Of a DNA stretch of 64,000 nt, positions 14,514 to 55,653 are shown in pieces. Made by a program: the position numbers and the translations under genes. The stretch is taken from the NCBI RefSeq assembly GCF_024700885.2, contig NZ_CP117016.1, one strand, 5' to 3'. The DNA is from Escherichia coli (GTDB lineage: Bacteria > Pseudomonadota > Gammaproteobacteria > Enterobacterales > Enterobacteriaceae). The notes beneath the pieces are model-generated. The model ran no database searches, was not told where the DNA came from, and saw only the letters and a list, made by a program, of their open reading frames with translations. Within the stretch, counting starts at the first letter, position 1. The number at the start of each line of letters is the position of its first letter.

Positions 14514-14589
14514 TCCTCTGTAGTTCAGTCGGTAGAACGGCGGACTGTTAATCCGTATGTCACTGGTTCGAGTCCAGTCAGAGGAGCCA
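14514..14589 (+). tRNA. asnT: tRNA-Asn (GUU)
   Basis: 76-nt TCCTCTGTAGTTCAGTCGGTAGAACGGCGGACTGTTAATCCGTATGTCACTGGTTCGAGTCCAGTCAGAGGAGCCA; its 3' end is the HPI attachment site. Confidence 0.95.
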
Positions 14590-23611: not shown

Positions 23612-23676
23612 ACCCGAAACGGGCATAAATAAACCCGTTTCGGGTAGCATCCAATTGTTAATAATTATTATTCTCA
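23612..23676 (+). promoter_or_regulatory. irp2 promoter: 38-bp RS palindrome (YbtA site) plus Fur-box-like sequence
   Basis: acccgaaacgggcataaataaacccgtttcgggtagca (23612-23649) is near-identical to the element at 42895-42932 upstream of fyuA; AT-rich Fur-like ttgttaataattattattctc at 23656-23676. Confidence 0.55.
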
Positions 23677-23719
23677 TATGAGTAATGCTTTTCGGTAAGA
23701 CGTGCCATCAGGAGGAAGA

Positions 23720-26700
23720 ATGATTTCTGGCGCACCATCTCAGGATTCGCTGTTACCGGACAACCGCCACGCGGCTGATTACCAACAATTACGCGAGCGG
23801 CTCATACAGGAACTGAATTTAACGCCGCAGCAGTTACATGAAGAGAGCAACCTGATCCAGGCCGGCCTGGATTCCATAAGATTGATGAGATGGTTACACT
23901 GGTTTCGTAAAAATGGCTACCGCCTTACCCTTCGCGAGCTGTATGCCGCCCCCACGCTGGCGGCATGGAACCAGTTAATGCTCAGCCGGTCGCCGGAGAA
24001 CGCGGAAGAAGAAACGCCGCCCGACGAATCATCCTGGCCGAACATGACCGAAAGTACCCCCTTCCCATTGACGCCAGTACAGCACGCCTACCTGACGGGC
24101 CGCATGCCGGGGCAGACGCTTGGCGGCGTGGGTTGCCACCTGTATCAGGAGTTTGAAGGCCATTGTCTGACGGCGTCGCAGCTGGAGCAGGCCATCACGA
24201 CCTTGCTGCAACGCCACCCAATGCTGCATATCGCCTTTCGCCCCGACGGGCAGCAGGTCTGGCTACCGCAACCTTACTGGAACGGCGTCACCGTTCATGA
24301 TTTACGCCATAACGACGCTGAAAGCCGCCAGGCCTATCTGGACGCACTGCGCCAGCGCCTGAGCCACCGTCTTTTACGCGTGGAAATCGGCGAAACGTTT
24401 GATTTTCAGCTGACGCTCTTGCCGGACAATCGCCACCGCCTCCATGTCAATATTGACCTGCTGATTATGGATGCCTCCAGCTTTACGCTTTTCTTCGATG
24501 AGCTTAACGCCCTGCTGGCCGGAGAATCGCTGCCGGCTATCGACACCCGCTATGATTTCCGCTCGTATTTGCTGCACCAGCAGAAGATTAATCAACCACT
24601 GAGAGACGACGCGCTCGCTTACTGGCTGGCGAAAGCATCGACGCTTCCCCCCGCGCCCGTCTTGCCGCTGGCCTGCGAACCCGCCACGCTATGTGAAGTC
24701 CGTAATACCCGACGCCGCATGATTGTCCCGGCAACACGCTGGCACGCCTTTAGCAACCGGGCCGGCGAGTATGGCGTGACGCCGACAATGGCACTGGCGA
24801 CCTGTTTTTCTGCCGTGCTGGCTCGCTGGGGCGGCCTGACGCGTCTGCTGCTTAACATCACCTTATTCGACCGCCAGCCGCTGCACCCGGCGGTTGGCGC
24901 GATGCTTGCCGACTTCACCAATATTCTTCTGCTGGATACCGCCTGCGATGGCGATACCGTCAGCAACCTGGCGCGTAAAAACCAGCTCACGTTTACGGAG
25001 GACTGGGAGCATCGCCACTGGTCCGGCGTCGAATTACTCCGTGAACTCAAACGCCAGCAGCGCTACCCCCACGGCGCCCCGGTGGTATTTACCAGCAATC
25101 TGGGGCGTTCCCTCTACAGCAGCCGCGCAGAATCGCCGTTGGGCGAGCCGGAATGGGGCATCTCGCAAACGCCGCAGGTCTGGATAGATCATCTGGCGTT
25201 CGAGCATCACGGCGAGGTCTGGCTACAATGGGACAGCAACGACGCGCTGTTCCCTCCGGCGTTAGTCGAAACATTGTTCGACGCCTACTGCCAGTTGATT
25301 AACCAACTCTGCGATGACGAAAGCGCCTGGCAAAAGCCGTTCGCAGATATGATGCCCGCCAGCCAGCGCGCGATACGCGAACGGGTCAACGCCACCGGCG
25401 CCCCCATTCCCGAAGGCTTGCTGCATGAAGGCATTTTCCGTATCGCTCTGCAACAGCCGCAGGCGCTGGCGGTAACGGACATGCGTTATCAGTGGAATTA
25501 TCATGAGCTGACAGACTATGCCCGCCGTTGCGCGGGCAGGTTAATCGAGTGCGGGGTTCAGCCCGGCGATAATGTGGCTATCACGATGTCGAAAGGCGCA
25601 GGACAACTTGTTGCGGTTCTGGCCGTCCTGCTGGCCGGGGCGGTTTACGTTCCGGTTTCGCTGGATCAGCCTGCCGCACGGCGCGAGAAAATCTACGCTG
25701 ACGCCAGCGTCCGGCTGGTGCTCATTTGTCAGCACGACGCCAGCGCCGGGTCAGACGATATTCCCGTCCTTGCCTGGCAGCAGGCCATTGAGGCGGAGCC
25801 GATCGCCAACCCGGTAGTACGCGCCCCCACGCAACCGGCCTACATTATCTACACCTCCGGCTCTACCGGTACGCCGAAAGGGGTAGTCATTTCTCACCGG
25901 GGAGCGCTTAACACCTGTTGCGATATCAATACCCGCTATCAGGTTGGCCCGCATGACAGGGTGCTGGCCCTCTCCGCCCTACATTTTGATTTATCGGTTT
26001 ACGACATTTTTGGCGTACTGCGCGCGGGCGGCGCGCTGGTGATGGTGATGGAAAATCAACGGCGCGATCCTCACGCATGGTGTGAGCTGATCCAGCGCCA
26101 TCAGGTCACGCTCTGGAACAGCGTCCCGGCGCTGTTCGATATGCTGCTGACCTGGTGTGAAGGTTTCGCCGACGCCACGCCGGAAAACCTGCGCGCAGTG
26201 ATGCTTTCCGGCGACTGGATCGGGCTTGACCTCCCCGCCCGTTATCGGGCCTTCCGGCCACAAGGACAATTTATCGCGATGGGCGGTGCCACCGAGGCGT
26301 CTATCTGGTCTAACGCCTGCGAAATTCACGACGTCCCCGCCCACTGGCGCTCCATCCCTTACGGTTTTCCGCTAACCAACCAACGCTACCGGGTGGTGGA
26401 TGAACAGGGCCGGGACTGCCCTGACTGGGTGCCGGGTGAATTATGGATTGGCGGCATTGGGGTCGCGGAAGGCTATTTCAACGATCCCCTGCGTAGCGAG
26501 CAGCAATTTTTGACGCTCCCGGACGAGCGCTGGTATCGCACCGGCGATCTCGGCTGCTACTGGCCAGATGGCACAATCGAGTTCCTCGGTCGTCGTGACA
26601 AGCAGGTCAAAGTCGGAGGATATCGCATCGAGCTGGGCGAAATCGAAAGCGCGCTCAGCCAGCTGGCGGGGGTGAAACAAGCAACCGTTCTGGCGATCGG

Positions 26701-29700
26701 CGAAAAAGAAAAAACGCTGGCGGCATACGTTGTTCCTCAGGGCGAGGCTTTTTGCGTTACCGATCATCGGAACCCGGCACTGCCGCAGGCGTGGCACACG
26801 CTTGCGGGAACGTTGCCCTGTTGCGCCATCTCGCCAGAGATCTCCGCAGAACAGGTAGCCGATTTCCTTCAGCATCGCCTGCTAAAACTGAAGCCGGGTC
26901 ACACCGCTGGCGCCGATCCTCTCCCCCTGATGAACTCACTCGCTATCCAGCCGCGCTGGCAGGCCGTGGTGGAACGCTGGTTAGCATTTCTGGTGACACA
27001 ACGGCGACTGAAGCCCGCTGCTGAAGGTTATCAGGTCTGCGCTGGTGAAGAACGCGAGGATGAGCACCCGCACTTCAGCGGACATGATTTAACGTTATCG
27101 CAAATTCTTCGCGGTGCCCGTAACGAACTGTCGTTACTGAACGACGCGCAGTGGTCGCCGGAAAGCCTGGCCTTTAACCATCCGGCCAGCGCCCCGTATA
27201 TTCAGGAACTGGCGACAATTTGCCAACAGCTTGCACAGCGCTTACAGCGCCCGGTACGCCTGCTTGAGGTGGGAACCCGCACTGGCCGCGCCGCAGAATC
27301 GCTGTTAGCACAGCTCAACGCCGGACAGATTGAGTATGTCGGGCTTGAGCAGAGCCAGGAGATGCTGCTGAGCGCCCGGCAGAGGCTCGCCCCCTGGCCT
27401 GGCGCCCGTCTGTCCCTCTGGAATGCAGACACGCTGGCGACGCACGCTCACTCGGCGGACATTATCTGGCTTAATAACGCCCTGCATCGTCTGCTGCCGG
27501 AAGATCCCGGGCTCCTTGCGACATTACAACAGCTTGCCGTTCCCGGCGCGCTGCTCTACGTGATGGAGTTTCGCCAGTTAACGCCGTCCGCCCTACTCAG
27601 CACGCTCCTGTTAACCAATGGGCAGCCGGAGGCCTTGCTGCATAACAGCGCCGACTGGGCGGCATTATTTAGCGCGGCCGGCTTCAACTGTCAGCATGGC
27701 GATGAGGTCGCGGGGTTACAACGCTTCCTCGTACAATGTCCTGACAGGCAGGTGCGCCGCGATCCCCGTCAACTTCAGGCCGCCCTCGCCGGGAGTCTGC
27801 CGGGGTGGATGGTGCCGCAACGGATCGTATTCCTCGACGCCTTACCGCTGACGGCTAACGGGAAAATTGACTACCAGGCGCTGAAGCGTCGTCATACCCC
27901 TGAAGCGGAAAACCCGGCCGAAGCGGATTTACCCCAGGGCGACATTGAAAAACAGGTTGCCGCCCTCTGGCAGCAACTCTTATCAACTGGCAATGTCACC
28001 AGAGAAACCGACTTCTTCCAGCAAGGCGGCGATAGCCTGCTGGCGACCCGTCTGACCGGGCAACTTCATCAGGCAGGTTATGAAGCGCAATTAAGCGACC
28101 TGTTTAATCATCCCCGGCTGGCGGATTTTGCCGCCACGCTGCGGAAAACCGACGTCCCGGTCGAACAACCATTCGTCCACTCCCCTGAAGATCGCTACCA
28201 GCCCTTTGCGCTTACCGACGTGCAGCAGGCTTACCTGGTGGGGCGTCAGCCGGGCTTTGCCCTGGGCGGCGTCGGCTCACATTTCTTTGTTGAATTTGAA
28301 ATTGCCGATCTGGACCTCACCCGGCTGGAGACGGTCTGGAACCGATTAATCGCCCGCCACGATATGCTGCGCGCCATCGTGCGTGATGGACAGCAACAGG
28401 TGCTCGAACAGACGCCCCCTTGGGTGATACCCGCACACACCCTCCATACGCCTGAAGAGGCGTTGCGGGTGCGCGAAAAACTGGCGCATCAGGTACTCAA
28501 CCCCGAAGTGTGGCCGGTATTCGATCTCCAGGTCGGATACGTGGACGGGATGCCTGCCCGCCTGTGGCTGTGTCTGGATAACCTGTTGCTTGACGGTCTG
28601 AGCATGCAGATCCTGCTGGCGGAGCTGGAGCACGGCTACCGCTACCCGCAACAGCTGCTTCCGCCGCTGCCCGTCACCTTCAGGGATTATCTGCAACAAC
28701 CCTCGCTACAGTCGCCCAATCCAGATTCTCTGGCATGGTGGCAGGCGCAGCTTGATGATATTCCTCCGGCGCCTGCGTTGCCGCTGCGCTGCTTGCCTCA
28801 GGAGGTTGAAACACCGCGCTTCGCCCGCCTGAACGGCGCACTGGACAGCACGCGCTGGCATCGGCTGAAAAAACGGGCGGCTGACGCCCATCTCACCCCG
28901 TCGGCCGTACTGTTGTCGGTGTGGTCAACGGTTCTCTCTGCATGGAGTGCACAGCCTGAGTTCACGCTTAACCTTACGCTTTTCGACAGGCGACCGCTGC
29001 ACCCGCAAATCAACCAGATTCTGGGCGATTTCACCTCGCTGATGCTGCTGAGCTGGCATCCCGGCGAAAGCTGGCTGCACAGCGCGCAGTCACTACAGCA
29101 GCGGCTGAGCCAGAACCTCAACCACCGCGATGTGTCAGCCATCCGCGTGATGCGTCAACTGGCGCAACGGCAAAACGTGCCTGCCGTTCCGATGCCCGTC
29201 GTCTTTACCAGCGCACTGGGCTTTGAGCAGGATAACTTCCTCGCCCGGCGTAATCTGCTCAAACCGGTCTGGGGCATCTCCCAGACGCCGCAGGTCTGGC
29301 TCGATCACCAGATTTATGAATCCGAAGGCGAACTGCGCTTTAACTGGGATTTTGTCGCCGCGCTGTTTCCTGCCGGGCAGGTGGAGCGCCAGTTTGAACA
29401 GTATTGCGCATTGCTAAACCGAATGGCCGAGGATGAAAGCGGCTGGCAACTGCCGCTCGCCGCGCTGGTGCCTCCCGTTAAACACGCAGGGCAATGCGCA
29501 GAGCGCTCACCGCGCGTATGCCCTGAGCACTCTCAGCCACACATTGCGGCGGACGAGAGCACCGTCAGCCTGATTTGCGACGCCTTCCGCGAGGTGGTTG
29601 GCGAGTCTGTCACGCCCGCAGAAAACTTCTTTGAGGCGGGCGCAACGTCGCTGAATCTGGTGCAACTGCACGTTTTGTTACAACGTCACGAATTTTCCAC

Positions 29701-29827
29701 CCTGACGTTGCTTGACCTCTTCACCCACCCTTCTCCTGCTGCCCTGGCCGATTATCTGGCCGGCGTCGCCACGGTGGAGAAAACAAAACGACCTCGCCCT
29801 GTTCGCCGTCGTCAGCGGCGGATATAG
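23720..29827 (+). CDS. irp2: yersiniabactin NRPS HMWP2 (ArCP-Cy-A-PCP-Cy-PCP)
   Basis: 2035 aa from Met at 23720 (strong SD aggagg); carrier-protein Ser motifs [24 protein letters not shown]; cyclisation DxxxxD motifs DLLIMDASS and DNLLLDGLS; adenylation core [12 protein letters not shown]. Confidence 0.92.
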
Positions 29828-32900: not shown

Positions 32901-35900
32901 GCGCCCGCCCCATTGAACATCAACAGCGGGAATCACTGCTGACGGAACTTGCCGGTTATTGTGAAGGTTTTCAGGCTATTCCCGACACCATCGCCCGTGC
33001 CGGCGATCGGTTATATGAAATGATGAGCGGCGCGGAAGAACCGGTGGCGATTATCTTCCCGCAAAGCGCCTCCGACGGCGTGGAAGTGCTGTATCAGGAA
33101 TTCAGCTTTGGCCGCTATTTCAACCAAATCGCCGCCGGGGTATTACGCGGCATTGTCCAGACGCGTCAGCCCCGCCAGCCGTTGCGTATTCTTGAAGTTG
33201 GCGGCGGAACCGGCGGCACCACCGCGTGGCTGCTGCCGGAACTCAACGGCGTTCCGGCACTGGAGTACCATTTCACCGATATCTCGGCGCTGTTCACCCG
33301 TCGCGCCCAGCAGAAATTCGCCGACTACGATTTTGTGAAGTATAGCGAGCTGGATCTCGAAAAAGAGGCGCAGTCTCAGGGTTTCCAGGCACAGTCTTAC
33401 GATCTTATCGTGGCAGCGAACGTGATTCACGCCACCCGCCATATTGGCCGCACGCTCGATAATCTGCGCCCCCTGCTCAAGCCGGGCGGGCGCCTGCTGA
33501 TGCGCGAAATCACCCAGCCAATGCGTCTGTTTGACTTCGTTTTCGGCCCGCTGGTTCTTCCGCTACAGGATCTCGACGCCCGCGAAGGTGAGTTATTCCT
33601 CACCACCGCTCAGTGGCAACAACAGTGCCGCCACGCCGGATTCAGCAAAGTGGCGTGGCTACCGCAGGATGGCAGCCCGAACGCCGGGATGAGCGAACAT
33701 ATCATTCTCGCCACGCTGCCCGGTCAGGCGGTTAGCGCCGTAACATTCACCGCGCCATCAGAACCCGTGTTGGGGCAGGCGCTGACGGATAACGGTGATT
33801 ATCTCGCCGACTGGTCTGATTGCGCAGGTCAGCCCGAACAGTTTAACGCCCGCTGGCAGGAGGCATGGCGTCTGCTTTCACAGCGTCATGGCGACGCTCT
33901 GCCTGTGGAACCGCCCCCCGTCGCCGCCCCGGAGTGGCTGGGGAAGGTTCGCTTAAGCTGGCAAAACGAAGCCTTTTCCCGCGGTCAGATGCGCGTTGAA
34001 GCCCGTCATCCTGCTGGCGAGTGGCTGCCGCTATCGCCCGCCGCGCCTCTTCCTGCGCCGCAAACGCATTATCAATGGCGCTGGACGCCCCTCAACGTCG
34101 CCAGCATTGACCATCCGCTTACCTTTAGCTTCAGCGCCGGTACGCTTGCGCGCAGCGACGAGCTGGCGCAATACGACATCATTCACGATCCGCACGCCTC
34201 TTCACGACTGATGATTGTTGAGGAGAGCGAGGATACGCTGGCCTTAGCGGAGAAAGTGATAGCAGCGCTCACCGCCAGCGCAGCCGGATTGATTGTGGTT
34301 ACTCGCCGCGCGTGGCGAGTCGAGGAAAATGAAGCACTCTCTGCATCCCATCACGCGCTATGGGCCTTGCTTCGCGTCGCGGCCAACGAACAGCCGGAAC
34401 GGTTGCTTGCCGCCATCGATCTCGCCGAAAACACCCCGTGGGAAACGCTGCATCAAGGGTTGAGCGCAGTCTCACTATCACAGCGCTGGCTCGCCGCACG
34501 GGGTGACACCCTTTGGCTTCCTTCACTGTCGCCCAATACGGGATGCGCCGCTGAATTACCGGCAAACGTGTTTACCGGCGATAGCCGCTGGCATCTGGTG
34601 ACCGGAGCGTTTGGCGGATTAGGCCGCCTTGCCGTGAACTGGCTCAGAGAAAAAGGGGCGCGACGCATCGCCCTGCTGGCGCCGCGCGTGGATGAGTCAT
34701 GGCTACGCGACGTGGAGGGCGGGCAGACGCGCGTCTGCCGTTGTGATGTGGGCGATGCCGGGCAACTGGCCACGGTTCTTGACGATCTGGCGGCCAACGG
34801 CGGCATTGCCGGAGCGATTCATGCCGCTGGCGTATTGGCTGACGCGCCCTTGCAGGAGCTTGATGACCACCAGCTGGCTGCCGTTTTCGCGGTAAAAGCG
34901 CAGGCGGCAAGCCAGCTGTTGCAAACCCTGCGCAACCACGACGGACGCTATCTTATTCTCTACTCTTCCGCTGCCGCCACCCTCGGCGCGCCGGGTCAGA
35001 GCGCCCATGCGCTGGCCTGCGGCTACCTGGACGGGCTGGCCCAGCAGTTTTCCACCCTTGATGCGCCGAAAACGCTCTCTGTCGCCTGGGGCGCATGGGG
35101 AGAAAGCGGTCGGGCGGCCACGCCGGAAATGCTGGCGACGCTCGCCAGCCGAGGTATGGGCGCGTTAAGCGATGCCGAAGGCTGCTGGCACCTGGAACAG
35201 GCGGTGATGCGCGGCGCCCCGTGGCGACTGGCGATGCGCGTTTTTACCGACAAAATGCCCCCGTTACAACAGGCTCTGTTTAACATCAGCGCCACAGAAA
35301 AAGCCGCAACGCCGGTCATTCCTCCTGCTGATGACAACGCCTTTAACGGCAGCCTGAGCGATGAAACAGCGGTGATGGCATGGCTGAAAAAGCGGATTGC
35401 GGTTCAGCTAAGGCTGAGCGATCCGGCGTCACTGCATCCAAACCAGGATCTGTTGCAACTCGGCATGGACTCGCTGCTCTTCCTTGAACTCAGTAGCGAT
35501 ATTCAGCACTACCTGGGTGTACGCATCAATGCGGAACGGGCGTGGCAGGATCTGTCTCCTCATGGACTCACGCAGCTTATCTGTTCTAAGCCAGAGGCGA
35601 CGCCTGCCGCTTCGCAGCCGGAAGTGTTGCGGCACGACGCCGACGAGCGTTATGCGCCCTTCCCTTTGACGCCCATTCAGCACGCCTACTGGCTGGGGCG
35701 AACCCACCTCATTGGCTATGGCGGCGTCGCCTGTCACGTCCTGTTTGAGTGGGATAAACGCCACGATGAGTTCGATCTCGCCATACTGGAGAAAGCATGG
35801 AACCAGCTCATCGCACGCCACGATATGTTGCGTATGGTGGTTGATGCCGACGGGCAGCAGCGAATCCTGGCGACAACGCCGGAGTATCACATCCCGCGTG

Positions 35901-38900
35901 ACGATCTGCGCGCGCTTTCCCCGGAAGAACAGCGCATCGCGCTGGAAAAACGGCGGCATGAACTGAGCTATCGCGTTTTGCCTGCCGACCAGTGGCCTCT
36001 TTTTGAGCTGGTGGTCAGCGAAATCGACGATTGCCATTACCGTCTGCATATGAACCTCGACCTTTTGCAGTTTGATGTGCAGAGTTTTAAAGTCATGATG
36101 GACGACCTGGCGCAGGTCTGGCGCGGTGAAACGCTGGCACCGCTCGCTATTACCTTCCGTGATTATGTGATGGCTGAACAGGCGCGCCGACAGACATCGG
36201 CATGGCACGATGCCTGGGATTACTGGCAGGAAAAACTGCCGCAACTGCCCTTAGCGCCAGAGCTGCCGGTGGTTGAGACGCCCCCGGAAACGCCACACTT
36301 CACCACCTTCAAATCGACGATCGGCAAGACAGAATGGCAGGCCGTGAAACAGCGCTGGCAGCAGCAAGGCGTCACACCGTCTGCCGCGCTGCTCACGCTG
36401 TTTGCCGCCACCCTTGAGCGCTGGAGCCGTACCACAACATTTACGCTGAACCTGACGTTCTTCAATCGCCAGCCGATCCATCCGCAAATCAACCAGTTGA
36501 TTGGTGATTTTACCTCCGTCACGCTGGTTGATTTTAACTTCTCAGCGCCGGTGACGTTGCAAGAGCAGATGCAACAGACCCAACAGCGCCTCTGGCAAAA
36601 CATGGCGCACAGTGAAATGAACGGTGTTGAGGTGATCCGTGAGCTGGGCCGCCTGCGCGGATCACAACGTCAACCGCTGATGCCGGTAGTGTTTACCAGT
36701 ATGCTGGGGATGACGCTGGAAGGCATGACTATCGATCAGGCGATGAGCCATCTGTTCGGCGAACCCTGCTATGTATTCACGCAAACGCCGCAGGTCTGGC
36801 TGGATCATCAGGTCATGGAGAGTGACGGCGAGTTGATGTTTAGCTGGTACTGCATGGACAACGTGCTGGAACCCGGCGCTGCCGAGGCGATGTTTAATGA
36901 CTATTGCGCCATCCTGCAAGCCGTCATCGCCGCCCCTGAAAGCCTGAAGACTCTCGCCAGCGGCATCGCCAGGCACATTCCCCGCCGACGCTGGCCGCTG
37001 AACGCGCAGGCGGACTACGACCTGCGGGATATTGAGCAGGCGACGCTCGAATACCCCGGCATCCGGCAGGCCAGAGCGGAAATAACCGAACAGGGCGCGT
37101 TGACGCTGGATATCGTGATGGCCGACGATCCTTCGCCATCAGCGGCGATGCCTGATGAGCACGAACTTACCCAACTGGCGCTGCCGTTGCCTGAGCAGGC
37201 GCAGCTTGATGAGCTGGAGGCGACCTGGCGCTGGCTGGAGGCGCGTGCGCTACAGGGGATCGCGGCTACGCTAAATCGTCACGGCCTGTTTACCACGCCG
37301 GAGATCGCCCATCGCTTTAGCGCAATAGTACAGGCGCTGTCCTCGCAAGCGTCTCACCAGCGTCTGCTGCGCCAGTGGCTACAGTGTCTGACGGAAAGAG
37401 AGTGGTTAATCCGCGAAGGTGAAAGCTGGCGCTGCCGCATTCCGCTCAGCGAGATTCCTGAGCCTCAGGAAGCGTGCCCGCAAAGCCAATGGAGCCAGGC
37501 GCTGGCGCAGTATCTGGAAACCTGCATCGCCCGGCACGACGCCCTCTTCTCCGGGCAGTGTTCTCCGCTGGAATTGCTGTTCAACGAGCAGCATCGCGTT
37601 ACCGACGCGCTGTATCGCGACAACCCCGCCAGCACCTGTCTGAATCGCTATACCGCGCAGATTGCCGCCTTGTGCAGCGCAGAACGGATTCTGGAGGTTG
37701 GCGCCGGAACCGCAGCCACTACCGCGCCGGTGCTGAAGGCCACGCGGAACACGCGACAGTCGTACCACTTCACGGACGTCTCCGCGCAGTTCCTCAATGA
37801 CGCCAGAGCCCGTTTCCATGATGAATCGCAGGTGTCTTATGCCTTGTTCGACATCAACCAGCCGCTGGATTTCACCGCCCACCCGGAGGCGGGTTACGAC
37901 CTGATCGTTGCCGTCAATGTGCTCCACGACGCCAGCCATGTCGTCCAGACGTTGCGCAGATTAAAACTGTTGCTGAAAGCCGGCGGACGTTTGCTGATCG
38001 TTGAAGCGACGGAGCGAAACAGCGTATTCCAGCTGGCGAGCGTGGGCTTTATTGAGGGATTAAGCGGATACCGCGATTTCCGCCGCCGGGATGAGAAACC
38101 GATGCTCACCCGCTCCGCATGGCAGGAGGTTCTCGTTCAGGCCGGGTTTGCAAACGAGCTGGCGTGGCCCGCGCAGGAATCGTCGCCGCTGCGCCAGCAT
38201 CTGCTGGTAGCGCGTTCGCCTGGCGTAAATCGCCCGGATAAAAAAGCCGTGAGCCGCTATTTACAGCAGCGCTTTGGCACCGGTCTGCCCATTTTACAGA
38301 TCCGGCAAAGAGAAGCGTTATTTACGCCGCTGCATGCCCCGTCTGATGCGCCGACTGAGCCAGCCAAACCCACGCCAGTTGCCGGGGGGAATCCGGCACT
38401 GGAAAAACAGGTGGCTGAACTCTGGCAATCGCTGCTGTCTCGCCCCGTGGCAAGGCATCACGACTTTTTCGAACTGGGCGGCGACAGCCTGATGGCGACA
38501 AGGATGGTCGCGCAGCTAAACCGGAGAGGGATTGCCAGGGCTAACCTTCAGGATCTGTTCAGCCATTCGACGCTGAGCGACTTCTGCGCCCATCTACAGG
38601 CGGCTACGTCAGGAGAGGACAACCCGATACCCCTTTGCCAGGGCGACGGTGAGGAAACCCTGTTTGTCTTCCACGCTTCAGACGGCGATATCAGCGCCTG
38701 GCTGCCGCTCGCTAGCGCGTTGAACAGGCGCGTTTTCGGCCTGCAAGCAAAATCGCCGCAGCGCCTTGCCACGCTCGACCAGATGATCGATGAGTATGTC
38801 GGGTGCATCCGTCGTCAGCAGCCTCACGGCCCTTATGTGCTGGCGGGTTGGTCGTATGGCGCGTTTCTTGCGGCGGGCGCCGCACAACGCCTGTACGCCA

Positions 38901-51345: not shown

Positions 51346-51421
51346 TGGCTCCTCTGACTGGACTCGAACCAGTGACATACGGATTAACAGTCCGCCGTTC
51401 TACCAACTGAACTACAGAGGA
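51346..51421 (-). tRNA. asnW: tRNA-Asn (GUU), variant copy with one D-loop substitution
   Basis: Reverse complement is identical to the other three Asn tRNAs except AGTTGGTAG instead of AGTCGGTAG in the D-loop. Confidence 0.93.
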
Positions 51422-53169: not shown

Positions 53170-53245
53170 TCCTCTGTAGTTCAGTCGGTAGAACGGCGGA
53201 CTGTTAATCCGTATGTCACTGGTTCGAGTCCAGTCAGAGGAGCCA
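53170..53245 (+). tRNA. asnU: tRNA-Asn (GUU)
   Basis: 76-nt sequence identical to asnT. Confidence 0.95.
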
Positions 53246-55577: not shown

Positions 55578-55653
55578 TCCTCTGTAGTTCAGTCGGTAGA
55601 ACGGCGGACTGTTAATCCGTATGTCACTGGTTCGAGTCCAGTCAGAGGAGCCA
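55578..55653 (+). tRNA. asnV: tRNA-Asn (GUU)
   Basis: 76-nt sequence identical to asnT. Confidence 0.95.

Follow-up and report, generated by a model that had tools for sequence, protein, structure and literature searches.

Why should a nonribosomal peptide synthetase (NRPS) carry a methyltransferase-like (MT-like) domain within one of its adenylation (A) domains, and what would such a domain do there? The question is raised by irp2, the gene for the yersiniabactin NRPS protein HMWP2, in a 64,000-nucleotide stretch of Escherichia coli DNA (contig NZ_CP117016.1 of assembly GCF_024700885.2; henceforth the window). We consider it very probable that the inserted segment is the non-canonical epimerase (E) domain of HMWP2, descended from a C-methyltransferase (C-MT) and lodged in the small C-terminal subdomain of the cysteine A domain, between core motifs A8 and A9. 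An embedded epimerase-like domain in irp2 is already known and is an ordinary textbook feature; the comparisons made here concern its exact limits, its ancestry, and the residues that set it apart from methylating relatives.

The insert interrupts the adenylation domain between motifs A8 and A9

The irp2 gene is intact in the window (23720-29827, 2035 aa plus stop), with its coding sequence (CDS) mapped from an identical annotated RefSeq locus and backed by the list of open reading frames (ORFs), a ribosome-binding site, and Pfam matches. Like all irp2 and irp1 features given below, it lies on the + strand, and residue numbers are those of the annotated HMWP2 protein, offset by 6 from the numbering of the mechanical ORF. 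The domain order is ArCP-Cy1-A(E)-PCP1-Cy2-PCP2. The adenylation core (Pfam AMP-binding, aa 575-920, 25442-26479, 288 bits) is followed by the A8 motif (a 20-residue peptide, 26588-26647) and by a segment of genuine A-subdomain sequence running up to ...LAAYVV (26648-26734), which is alignable to uninterrupted A domains (to that of LgrA through query residue 95-96). The LgrA alignment stops after ...AAYVV and restarts 20 aa before A9, with 345 aa in HMWP2 vs 8 in LgrA, i.e., a net gain of about 337 aa (the inserted block corresponds to residues 96-440 counted from window position 26450). The embedded MT-fold domain, the proposed non-canonical E domain, accordingly spans aa 1006-1350 (26735-27769; 345 aa, 38.1 kDa), as delimited by this alignment, a structural model, and fold and profile matches, and its mass is in line with the "37 kDa" given for the embedded domain in PMC9547227. 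Beyond it the A subdomain resumes with the A9 motif LPGWMVP (27797-27817, placed by motif location and the LgrA alignment) and the A10 core NGKIDY (27857-27874, inside a 13-residue peptide at 27845-27883), followed by the PCP1 carrier domain (Pfam PP-binding, aa 1412-1474, 27953-28141, also matched by PDB 5u3h).

Motifs A3, A8, A9, and A10 were all located in irp2; the A domain is complete, its core motifs standing before and after the insert, and the Pfam family AMP-binding_C is cut in two around it. Given that A9 lies after the insert, the interruption is of the A8-A9 type. An earlier, sequence-only reading of this DNA had set the insertion between the A8-like and A10-like ends, and these do flank it, but the true point of entry is A8-A9. 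All three peptides quoted in that reading (the A8 and A10 peptides above and the motif I peptide discussed below) are present in the irp2 frame at the places given for them, and its limits of 26650-27840 bracket the 399-aa interval between the quoted A8 and A10 peptides to within 2-4 nt. The size that it proposed for the insert, ~390 aa, is too large: the LgrA alignment gives about 337-345 aa, and the excess is genuine A-subdomain sequence, which makes up about 55 of those 399 aa. Domain calling of the kind that it had suggested finds the A subdomain split, with a class I MT domain between the two parts and not elsewhere.

The insert sits in a Cy-A module of the thiazoline-forming kind, with a cyclization (Cy) signature in Cy1 upstream of it (DLLIMDASS). 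No canonical NRPS E domain is present in irp2, where HHxxxDG is absent and the Pfam Condensation matches are the two Cy domains only.

A C-methyltransferase-like fold, with the E domain of PchE as the best profile match

The resemblance of the insert to methyltransferases is confirmed to be far above chance. Pfam Methyltransf_12 matches aa 1182-1279 (27263-27556) with 48.4 bits (cut-off 30), and three more MT families also exceed their cut-offs (Methyltransf_25, 31.5 vs 27; Methyltransf_23, 29.3 vs 27; Methyltransf_11, 27.7 vs 21.2). The NCBIfam scan of the insert returned weak sub-threshold matches only (CmoA, UbiE, and others) and no informative family, and phmmer with the insert alone against PDB sequences gave weak matches to the CurJ C-MT, AprA MT2, and YecO, at E about 1e-3. 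A far stronger signal came from a profile of alignment A1, which holds HMWP2 and 22 relatives that share an Arg in motif I (23 sequences; Arg-type relatives, see below). The top PDB match of this profile is the E domain of PchE (E 1.4e-27, residues 1069-1249), followed by the CurJ C-MT (6.9e-25) and then PsoF, LovB CMeT, PksCT CMeT, and AprA MT2.

Structure prediction gave a concordant picture. The AlphaFold2 model of the 345-aa insert (from a 22-sequence alignment; pLDDT 89, pTM 0.89) consists of N-terminal helices (38-170) and an alternating beta/alpha, Rossmann-type core, and a Foldseek search against PDB places C-MTs on top (CurJ at 5e-19, then AprA MT2, PksCT CMeT, DszA C-MT, and PsoF, with the C-MT range extending from 5e-19 to 1e-12). 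The model also superposes on PchE (7emy_A; E 6e-12, TMq 0.61). In 5wmm, an interrupted A domain of the N-methyltransferase (N-MT) type, the match is confined to the flanking parts of the A subdomain and does not involve the insert. These neighbours point to an ancestry of the insert among the C-MTs of polyketide synthases (PKSs) and NRPSs rather than among N-MTs.

The E domain of PchE (the pyochelin synthetase of Pseudomonas aeruginosa; PDB 7EMY, 7EN1, 7EN2) is, like the HMWP2 insert, an A8-A9 insert in a Cys-activating A domain downstream of a Cy domain, and both consist of a helical lid and a Rossmann core, at about 19-20% identity over the structural alignment. PchE has one Cy module and HMWP2 two. 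The sequence-only reading had recognised the insert as the known embedded MT-like domain of the HMWP2/PchE kind, and the superposition, the profile match, and the shared catalytic His described below bear this out. PKS C-MTs (CurJ 5THY, PksCT CMeT 5MPT, DszA 6CCA, PsoF 6KJG, AprA MT2 6D6Y) provide the best fold matches and strong profile matches, and share with the insert an aligned His-Glu dyad, the beta2 acid, and the beta4 Asp; unlike the insert, they possess a canonical GxGxG, bind S-adenosylmethionine (SAM) or S-adenosylhomocysteine (SAH), methylate beta-ketoacyl-ACP, and are not embedded in A domains.

Motif I has lost its middle glycine and the C-MT dyad is retained

The residue map was derived from a joint alignment of HMWP2, PchE, CurJ (5thy chain index), and two comparators encoded by irp1 in the same window, i.e., MT1 (a PKS C-MT, 33191-33496, motif I LEVGGGTGG) and MT2 (an NRPS C-MT, 37634-38020, motif I LEVGAGTAA). 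In this alignment the 15-residue peptide quoted in the sequence-only reading (27260-27304) is a motif I variant, with R1187 (codon 27278-27280) in place of the middle Gly of GxGxG. Motif I reads EVG-T-R-T-G in HMWP2 and LD-T-R-A-G in PchE, which unlike HMWP2 also has Asp at the first Gly, vs EIG-A-G-T-G in CurJ, EVG-G-G-T-G in MT1, and EVG-A-G-T-A in MT2; the middle position is thus occupied by R1187 in HMWP2, R1136 in PchE, G231 in CurJ, G1098 in MT1, and G2598 in MT2. The canonical glycine-rich form (E/DxGxGxG) is not found in the HMWP2 insert, where the middle Gly alone is replaced, and a motif I reading G-T-R-T-G is not that of a canonical active methyltransferase.

The other residues of active C-MTs are in place. 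E1210 (27347-27349), the acidic residue ending strand beta2, aligns with E1159 of PchE, D254 of CurJ, D1122 of MT1, and D2621 of MT2, and the beta4 Asp is D1247 in HMWP2, with D1195, D295, D1163, and D2662 in the same order. H1256 in NNALHR (27485-27487) corresponds to H1204 of PchE, H304 of CurJ, H1172 of MT1, and H2671 of MT2, i.e., to the His of the C-MT His-Glu dyad, and E1283 in YVMEF (27566-27568) to the Glu of this dyad (D1230 of PchE, E330 of CurJ, E1198 of MT1, E2697 of MT2). Both dyad residues were placed by alignment (H1256 with HMMER and MAFFT) and are invariant in alignment A1 and in a second alignment, A2. PKS C-MTs act at the substrate C-alpha via this His-Glu dyad (PMC9821293), and for PchE, PMC8807600 reports H1204 as essential for epimerisation, with reference to Patel et al. 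2003, and locates the E domain between A8 and A9.

The two irp1 domains (HMWP1 MT1 and MT2) are homologous C-MT-type domains that align with the insert over about 250 aa, and MT2 acts on a thiazoline C-alpha, i.e., the same carbon chemistry as proposed for the insert. Unlike the insert, both keep the middle Gly (GGGTG, GAGTA) and are assigned methylating domains, and their catalytic His is followed by Ala or Asp (H-A/H-D), where Arg-type relatives typically have H-R. MT2, to which the literature ascribes the methylation of the thiazoline C-alpha, has Ala for the third Gly (E-V-G-A-G-T-A-A), and a deviation in motif I is therefore by itself no mark of inactivity.

The motif I arginine marks a clade of inserts downstream of cyclization domains

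A scan of 1.84 billion cluster representatives yielded 221 clusters at E <=1e-3, and 89 matches aligned over at least 120 residues. These relatives fall into two groups, one in which Arg takes the place of the middle Gly in motif I (n = 41; lying among protein ids P0010-P0132) and one with a canonical GxGxG (n = 46). The A8 and/or A10 flanks were found in 37 of the 41 Arg-type sequences (both motifs in 31) and in 11 of the 46 canonical ones (both in nine). An upstream Cy signature, DxxxxDxxS, is present in 20 of the 21 Arg-type sequences with enough sequence and in four of five canonical ones, the expression being permissive (by our own estimate, about 0.1 chance matches per 650 aa), while HHxxxDG occurs upstream in none of either set (0/21 and 0/5). 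The usual context thus differs: Arg-type domains are embedded in Cy-A modules, whereas the canonical ones are mostly PKS-type C-MTs outside A domains. Within the Arg-type group the dyad His is kept in 40/41, the Glu/Asp in 40/41, and the beta2 acid in all 41, and the H-R pair formed with the catalytic His occurs in 30/41 vs 2/46 canonical sequences.

In a neighbour-joining tree computed with the motif I columns removed, 34 Arg-type sequences fall within one clade of 36, and two smaller Arg-type clades lie beside canonical MTs. Members of alignments A1 and A2 were picked partly by the Arg itself, and its invariance there is by construction; the independent support comes from the motif-I-free tree and from the Arg of PchE. 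Judging from these comparisons, the Arg is an old, fixed character of a lineage of A8-A9 inserts after cyclization domains, PchE included, and not the outcome of random decay, because the tree still groups the Arg-type sequences when the motif I columns are left out. The sequence-only reading had called the motif degenerate; it is non-canonical, with its middle Gly replaced, but a conserved G-x-R-x-G variant describes it better. In a few sequences within or beside the Arg-type clade, Gly or Ala stands in place of the Arg (P0038, GAGSG; P0095, GGASG; P0053, NGAAG), and from P0095 the beta2 acid and the Glu of the dyad are missing as well; such sequences may have reverted or may be copies in decay. 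The G-x-R-x-G/H-R signature of the Cy-associated clade was not found discussed in the literature examined, and Patel et al. 2003 and Ronnebaum et al. 2019 may already note the Arg.

A proposed epimerisation mechanism and its alternatives

How would a C-MT fold come to epimerise? We postulate that, after Cy1 has formed the hydroxyphenyl-thiazolinyl thioester on PCP1, the pantetheine arm would carry this intermediate into the insert, to a cleft with the helical lid on one side and the Rossmann core on the other. There the base pair kept from the C-MTs, in which E1283 polarises H1256, would take the C-alpha proton, as in a C-MT before methyl transfer. With Arg1187 in place of the middle Gly of the SAM site, no methyl group would be delivered, and the carbanion or enolate could be reprotonated from either face to give an L/D mixture, of which the downstream Cy2 would accept only the D-configured thiazoline. 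This scheme agrees with the published mechanism, in which Cy2 selects the D form and HMWP2 is written A(E), in the order ArCP-Cy1-A(E)-PCP1-Cy2-PCP2 (PMC9547227). For PchE, the passage of PMC5808125 that summarises Patel et al. 2003 describes epimerisation as shown by D2O and mass spectrometry together with mutagenesis, and by analogy the HMWP2 domain would be an epimerase as well, with H1256 as the likely proton-abstracting base and E1283 as its likely partner. The role suggested by the sequence-only reading, epimerising rather than methylating, is supported as an interpretation, and SAM use has probably been lost in the HMWP2 insert.

Several observations weigh against this assignment. No experiment on the embedded domain of HMWP2 itself was found in the literature, and for its statement PMC9547227 refers to the studies of PchE. 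Pairwise phmmer searches with the insert, the A8-A10 segment, and the whole protein against PDB gave no link at E<0.01 between the HMWP2 insert and the PchE E domain; PchE (7EMY) matches HMWP2 over the ArCP-Cy-A core with 749 bits, and the alignment ends at residue 1007. The idea that the two inserts are unrelated was considered and dropped once the profile and fold searches had linked them. The acid partner of H1204 proposed from the cryo-electron microscopy model of PchE, E1234 (PMC8807600, whose passages on it mention no mutagenesis), is matched by L1287 in HMWP2 (27566-27580 spans E1283...L1287), R334 in CurJ, P1202 in MT1, and R2701 in MT2, and an acid stands there in only one of the 41 Arg-type relatives. 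The acid conserved in the family is the C-MT dyad position four residues before it (D1230 in PchE, Glu elsewhere), and the mismatch weakens the E1234 proposal rather than the membership of the HMWP2 insert among PchE-type E domains. In addition, Asn or His occupies the middle position of GxGxG in active O-methyltransferases (O-MTs; PMC8341866), and E1210, the ribose-binding acid, is retained, which may leave some residual binding of SAM or SAH; the motif change alone is therefore no proof of MT inactivity.

Among the alternatives, the best placed, although in our view improbable, is that the insert is a dead MT relic kept as a spacer or scaffold of the A subdomain, while the first thiazoline ring changes its configuration spontaneously or within Cy1/Cy2. 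The lability of thiazoline C-alpha protons, the altered motif I, and a biochemistry that exists for PchE alone would all suit such a relic. However, relatives of only 21-39% identity keep the His, the Glu, the beta4 Asp, and the motif I Arg with few or no exceptions, which is not what one would expect of a relic, and the residue of PchE equivalent to H1256 is the one reported as essential in PMC8807600. A role of the insert in dimerisation or scaffolding was also considered and seems unlikely, as the PchE E domain lies outside the dimer interface and the catalytic residues are conserved.

Less probable still is an active SAM-dependent methyltransferase working on some intermediate or alternative product. 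The Pfam families above their cut-offs, the retained beta2 acid and His-Glu dyad, and the middle-Gly substitutions of active O-MTs (PMC8341866) would all be compatible with it. Against it, the whole clade, including PchE, whose domain epimerises, has a bulky Arg fixed in place of the middle Gly, and we know of no methylated product at the HMWP2 stage. The C-methylations of yersiniabactin are assigned to the two MT domains of HMWP1 (a table in PMC2613160 and a figure legend in PMC9547227), with HMWP1 alone listed with C-MTs in the former. This assignment, together with the PchE biochemistry, makes a stronger argument against MT activity than does the change in motif I. The most remote of the alternatives, a decayed backbone N-MT interruption like the A(M) domains of TioS, cyclosporin, or enniatin, has the same A8-A9 insertion point in its favour (PMC8341866), but the sequence and fold neighbours of the insert are C-MTs, 5wmm is absent from its matches, and none of the N-MT motifs of PMC8341866 (e.g., NELxxYRY) is evident in it; that 2020 catalogue of interrupted A domains mentions neither HMWP2/PchE nor any E-type family.

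Returning to the E domain assignment, one extension of it is tentative, and we rate it as rather doubtful: R1187 (R1136 in PchE) might take an active part in the epimerisation instead of being a passive plug. Its guanidinium, which E1210 may hold in position, would lie at the place of the SAM sulfonium and either stabilise the C-alpha carbanion or enolate or donate a proton from the opposite face. The true partner of the His would then be E1283 (D1230 in PchE) and not PchE E1234, and G-x-R-x-G together with N-x-x-L-H-R would serve as a predictor of D-thiazoline.

irp2 and its genomic setting

The mechanical ORF comprises 2041 codons (23702-29827, + strand) and opens at GTG 23702, whereas the annotated start is ATG 23720, with an AGGAGG ribosome-binding site 6 nt upstream. 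The 2.5 kb around the insert (26000-28500) match E. coli irp2, annotated as "yersiniabactin non-ribosomal peptide synthetase HMWP2", at 100% identity and were found in 2264 of 5426 complete genomes (>=80% coverage). Y. pestis HMWP2 (Irp2) of the High-Pathogenicity Island is the same gene, and its published order, ArCP-Cy1-A(E)-PCP1-Cy2-PCP2 (PMC9547227), fits. A partial Y. pestis NRPS protein shows 100% identity to residues 1-180 of the insert, the part covered by the named-sequence comparison, as the protein homologue search with the insert returned mostly short irp2 fragments. Structures of the Y. pestis HMWP2 Cy1, Cy2, and PCP domains match the HMWP2 of the window at E from 0 to 1e-68 (Cy1, 7ry6, over residues 101-546), and no difference was detectable in the parts compared.

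The gene order is tRNA-Asn, integrase, ybtS-X-Q-P, ybtA, irp2, irp1, ybtU-T-E, fyuA, i.e., the neighbourhood is the High-Pathogenicity Island, and GC is about 0.6 across roughly 16 to 44 kb of the window. Four tRNA-Asn (GTT) genes are present (14514-14589, 51346-51421, 53170-53245, 55578-55653); the island, with the integrase adjoining, is inserted at the first, and the other three lie 6-11 kb past fyuA. Upstream of irp2, between it and ybtA, lies an inverted repeat, ACCCGAAACGGG ... ACCCGTTTCGGGT (23615-23646), with AT-rich AATAATTATTATTCTCAT after it; this is a plausible place for the YbtA repeat and the Fur box that belong to the irp2 promoter.

Implications for annotation and for NRPS enzymology

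The sequence-only reading had cautioned that the domain should not be mistaken for a novel fusion, and rightly so: the gene is that of HMWP2, and the A(E) architecture stands in the literature. For annotation, an MT-like Pfam match in irp2 should be taken as the embedded non-canonical E domain of an A(E) module and not as a methyltransferase, a fusion, or an assembly artefact. Three by-products of the comparison are mildly useful for NRPS enzymology, i.e., the G-x-R-x-G/H-R signature of the clade, the retention of the C-MT dyad, and the lack of conservation of the acid proposed for PchE, and with them the stereochemistry of thiazolines from siderophore gene clusters could be predicted better; a further, modest one is that the insert descends from C-MTs and not from N-MTs. 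If the Arg were indeed a working part of the epimerase, G-x-R-x-G plus N-x-x-L-H-R would predict D-thiazoline stereochemistry from genomes.

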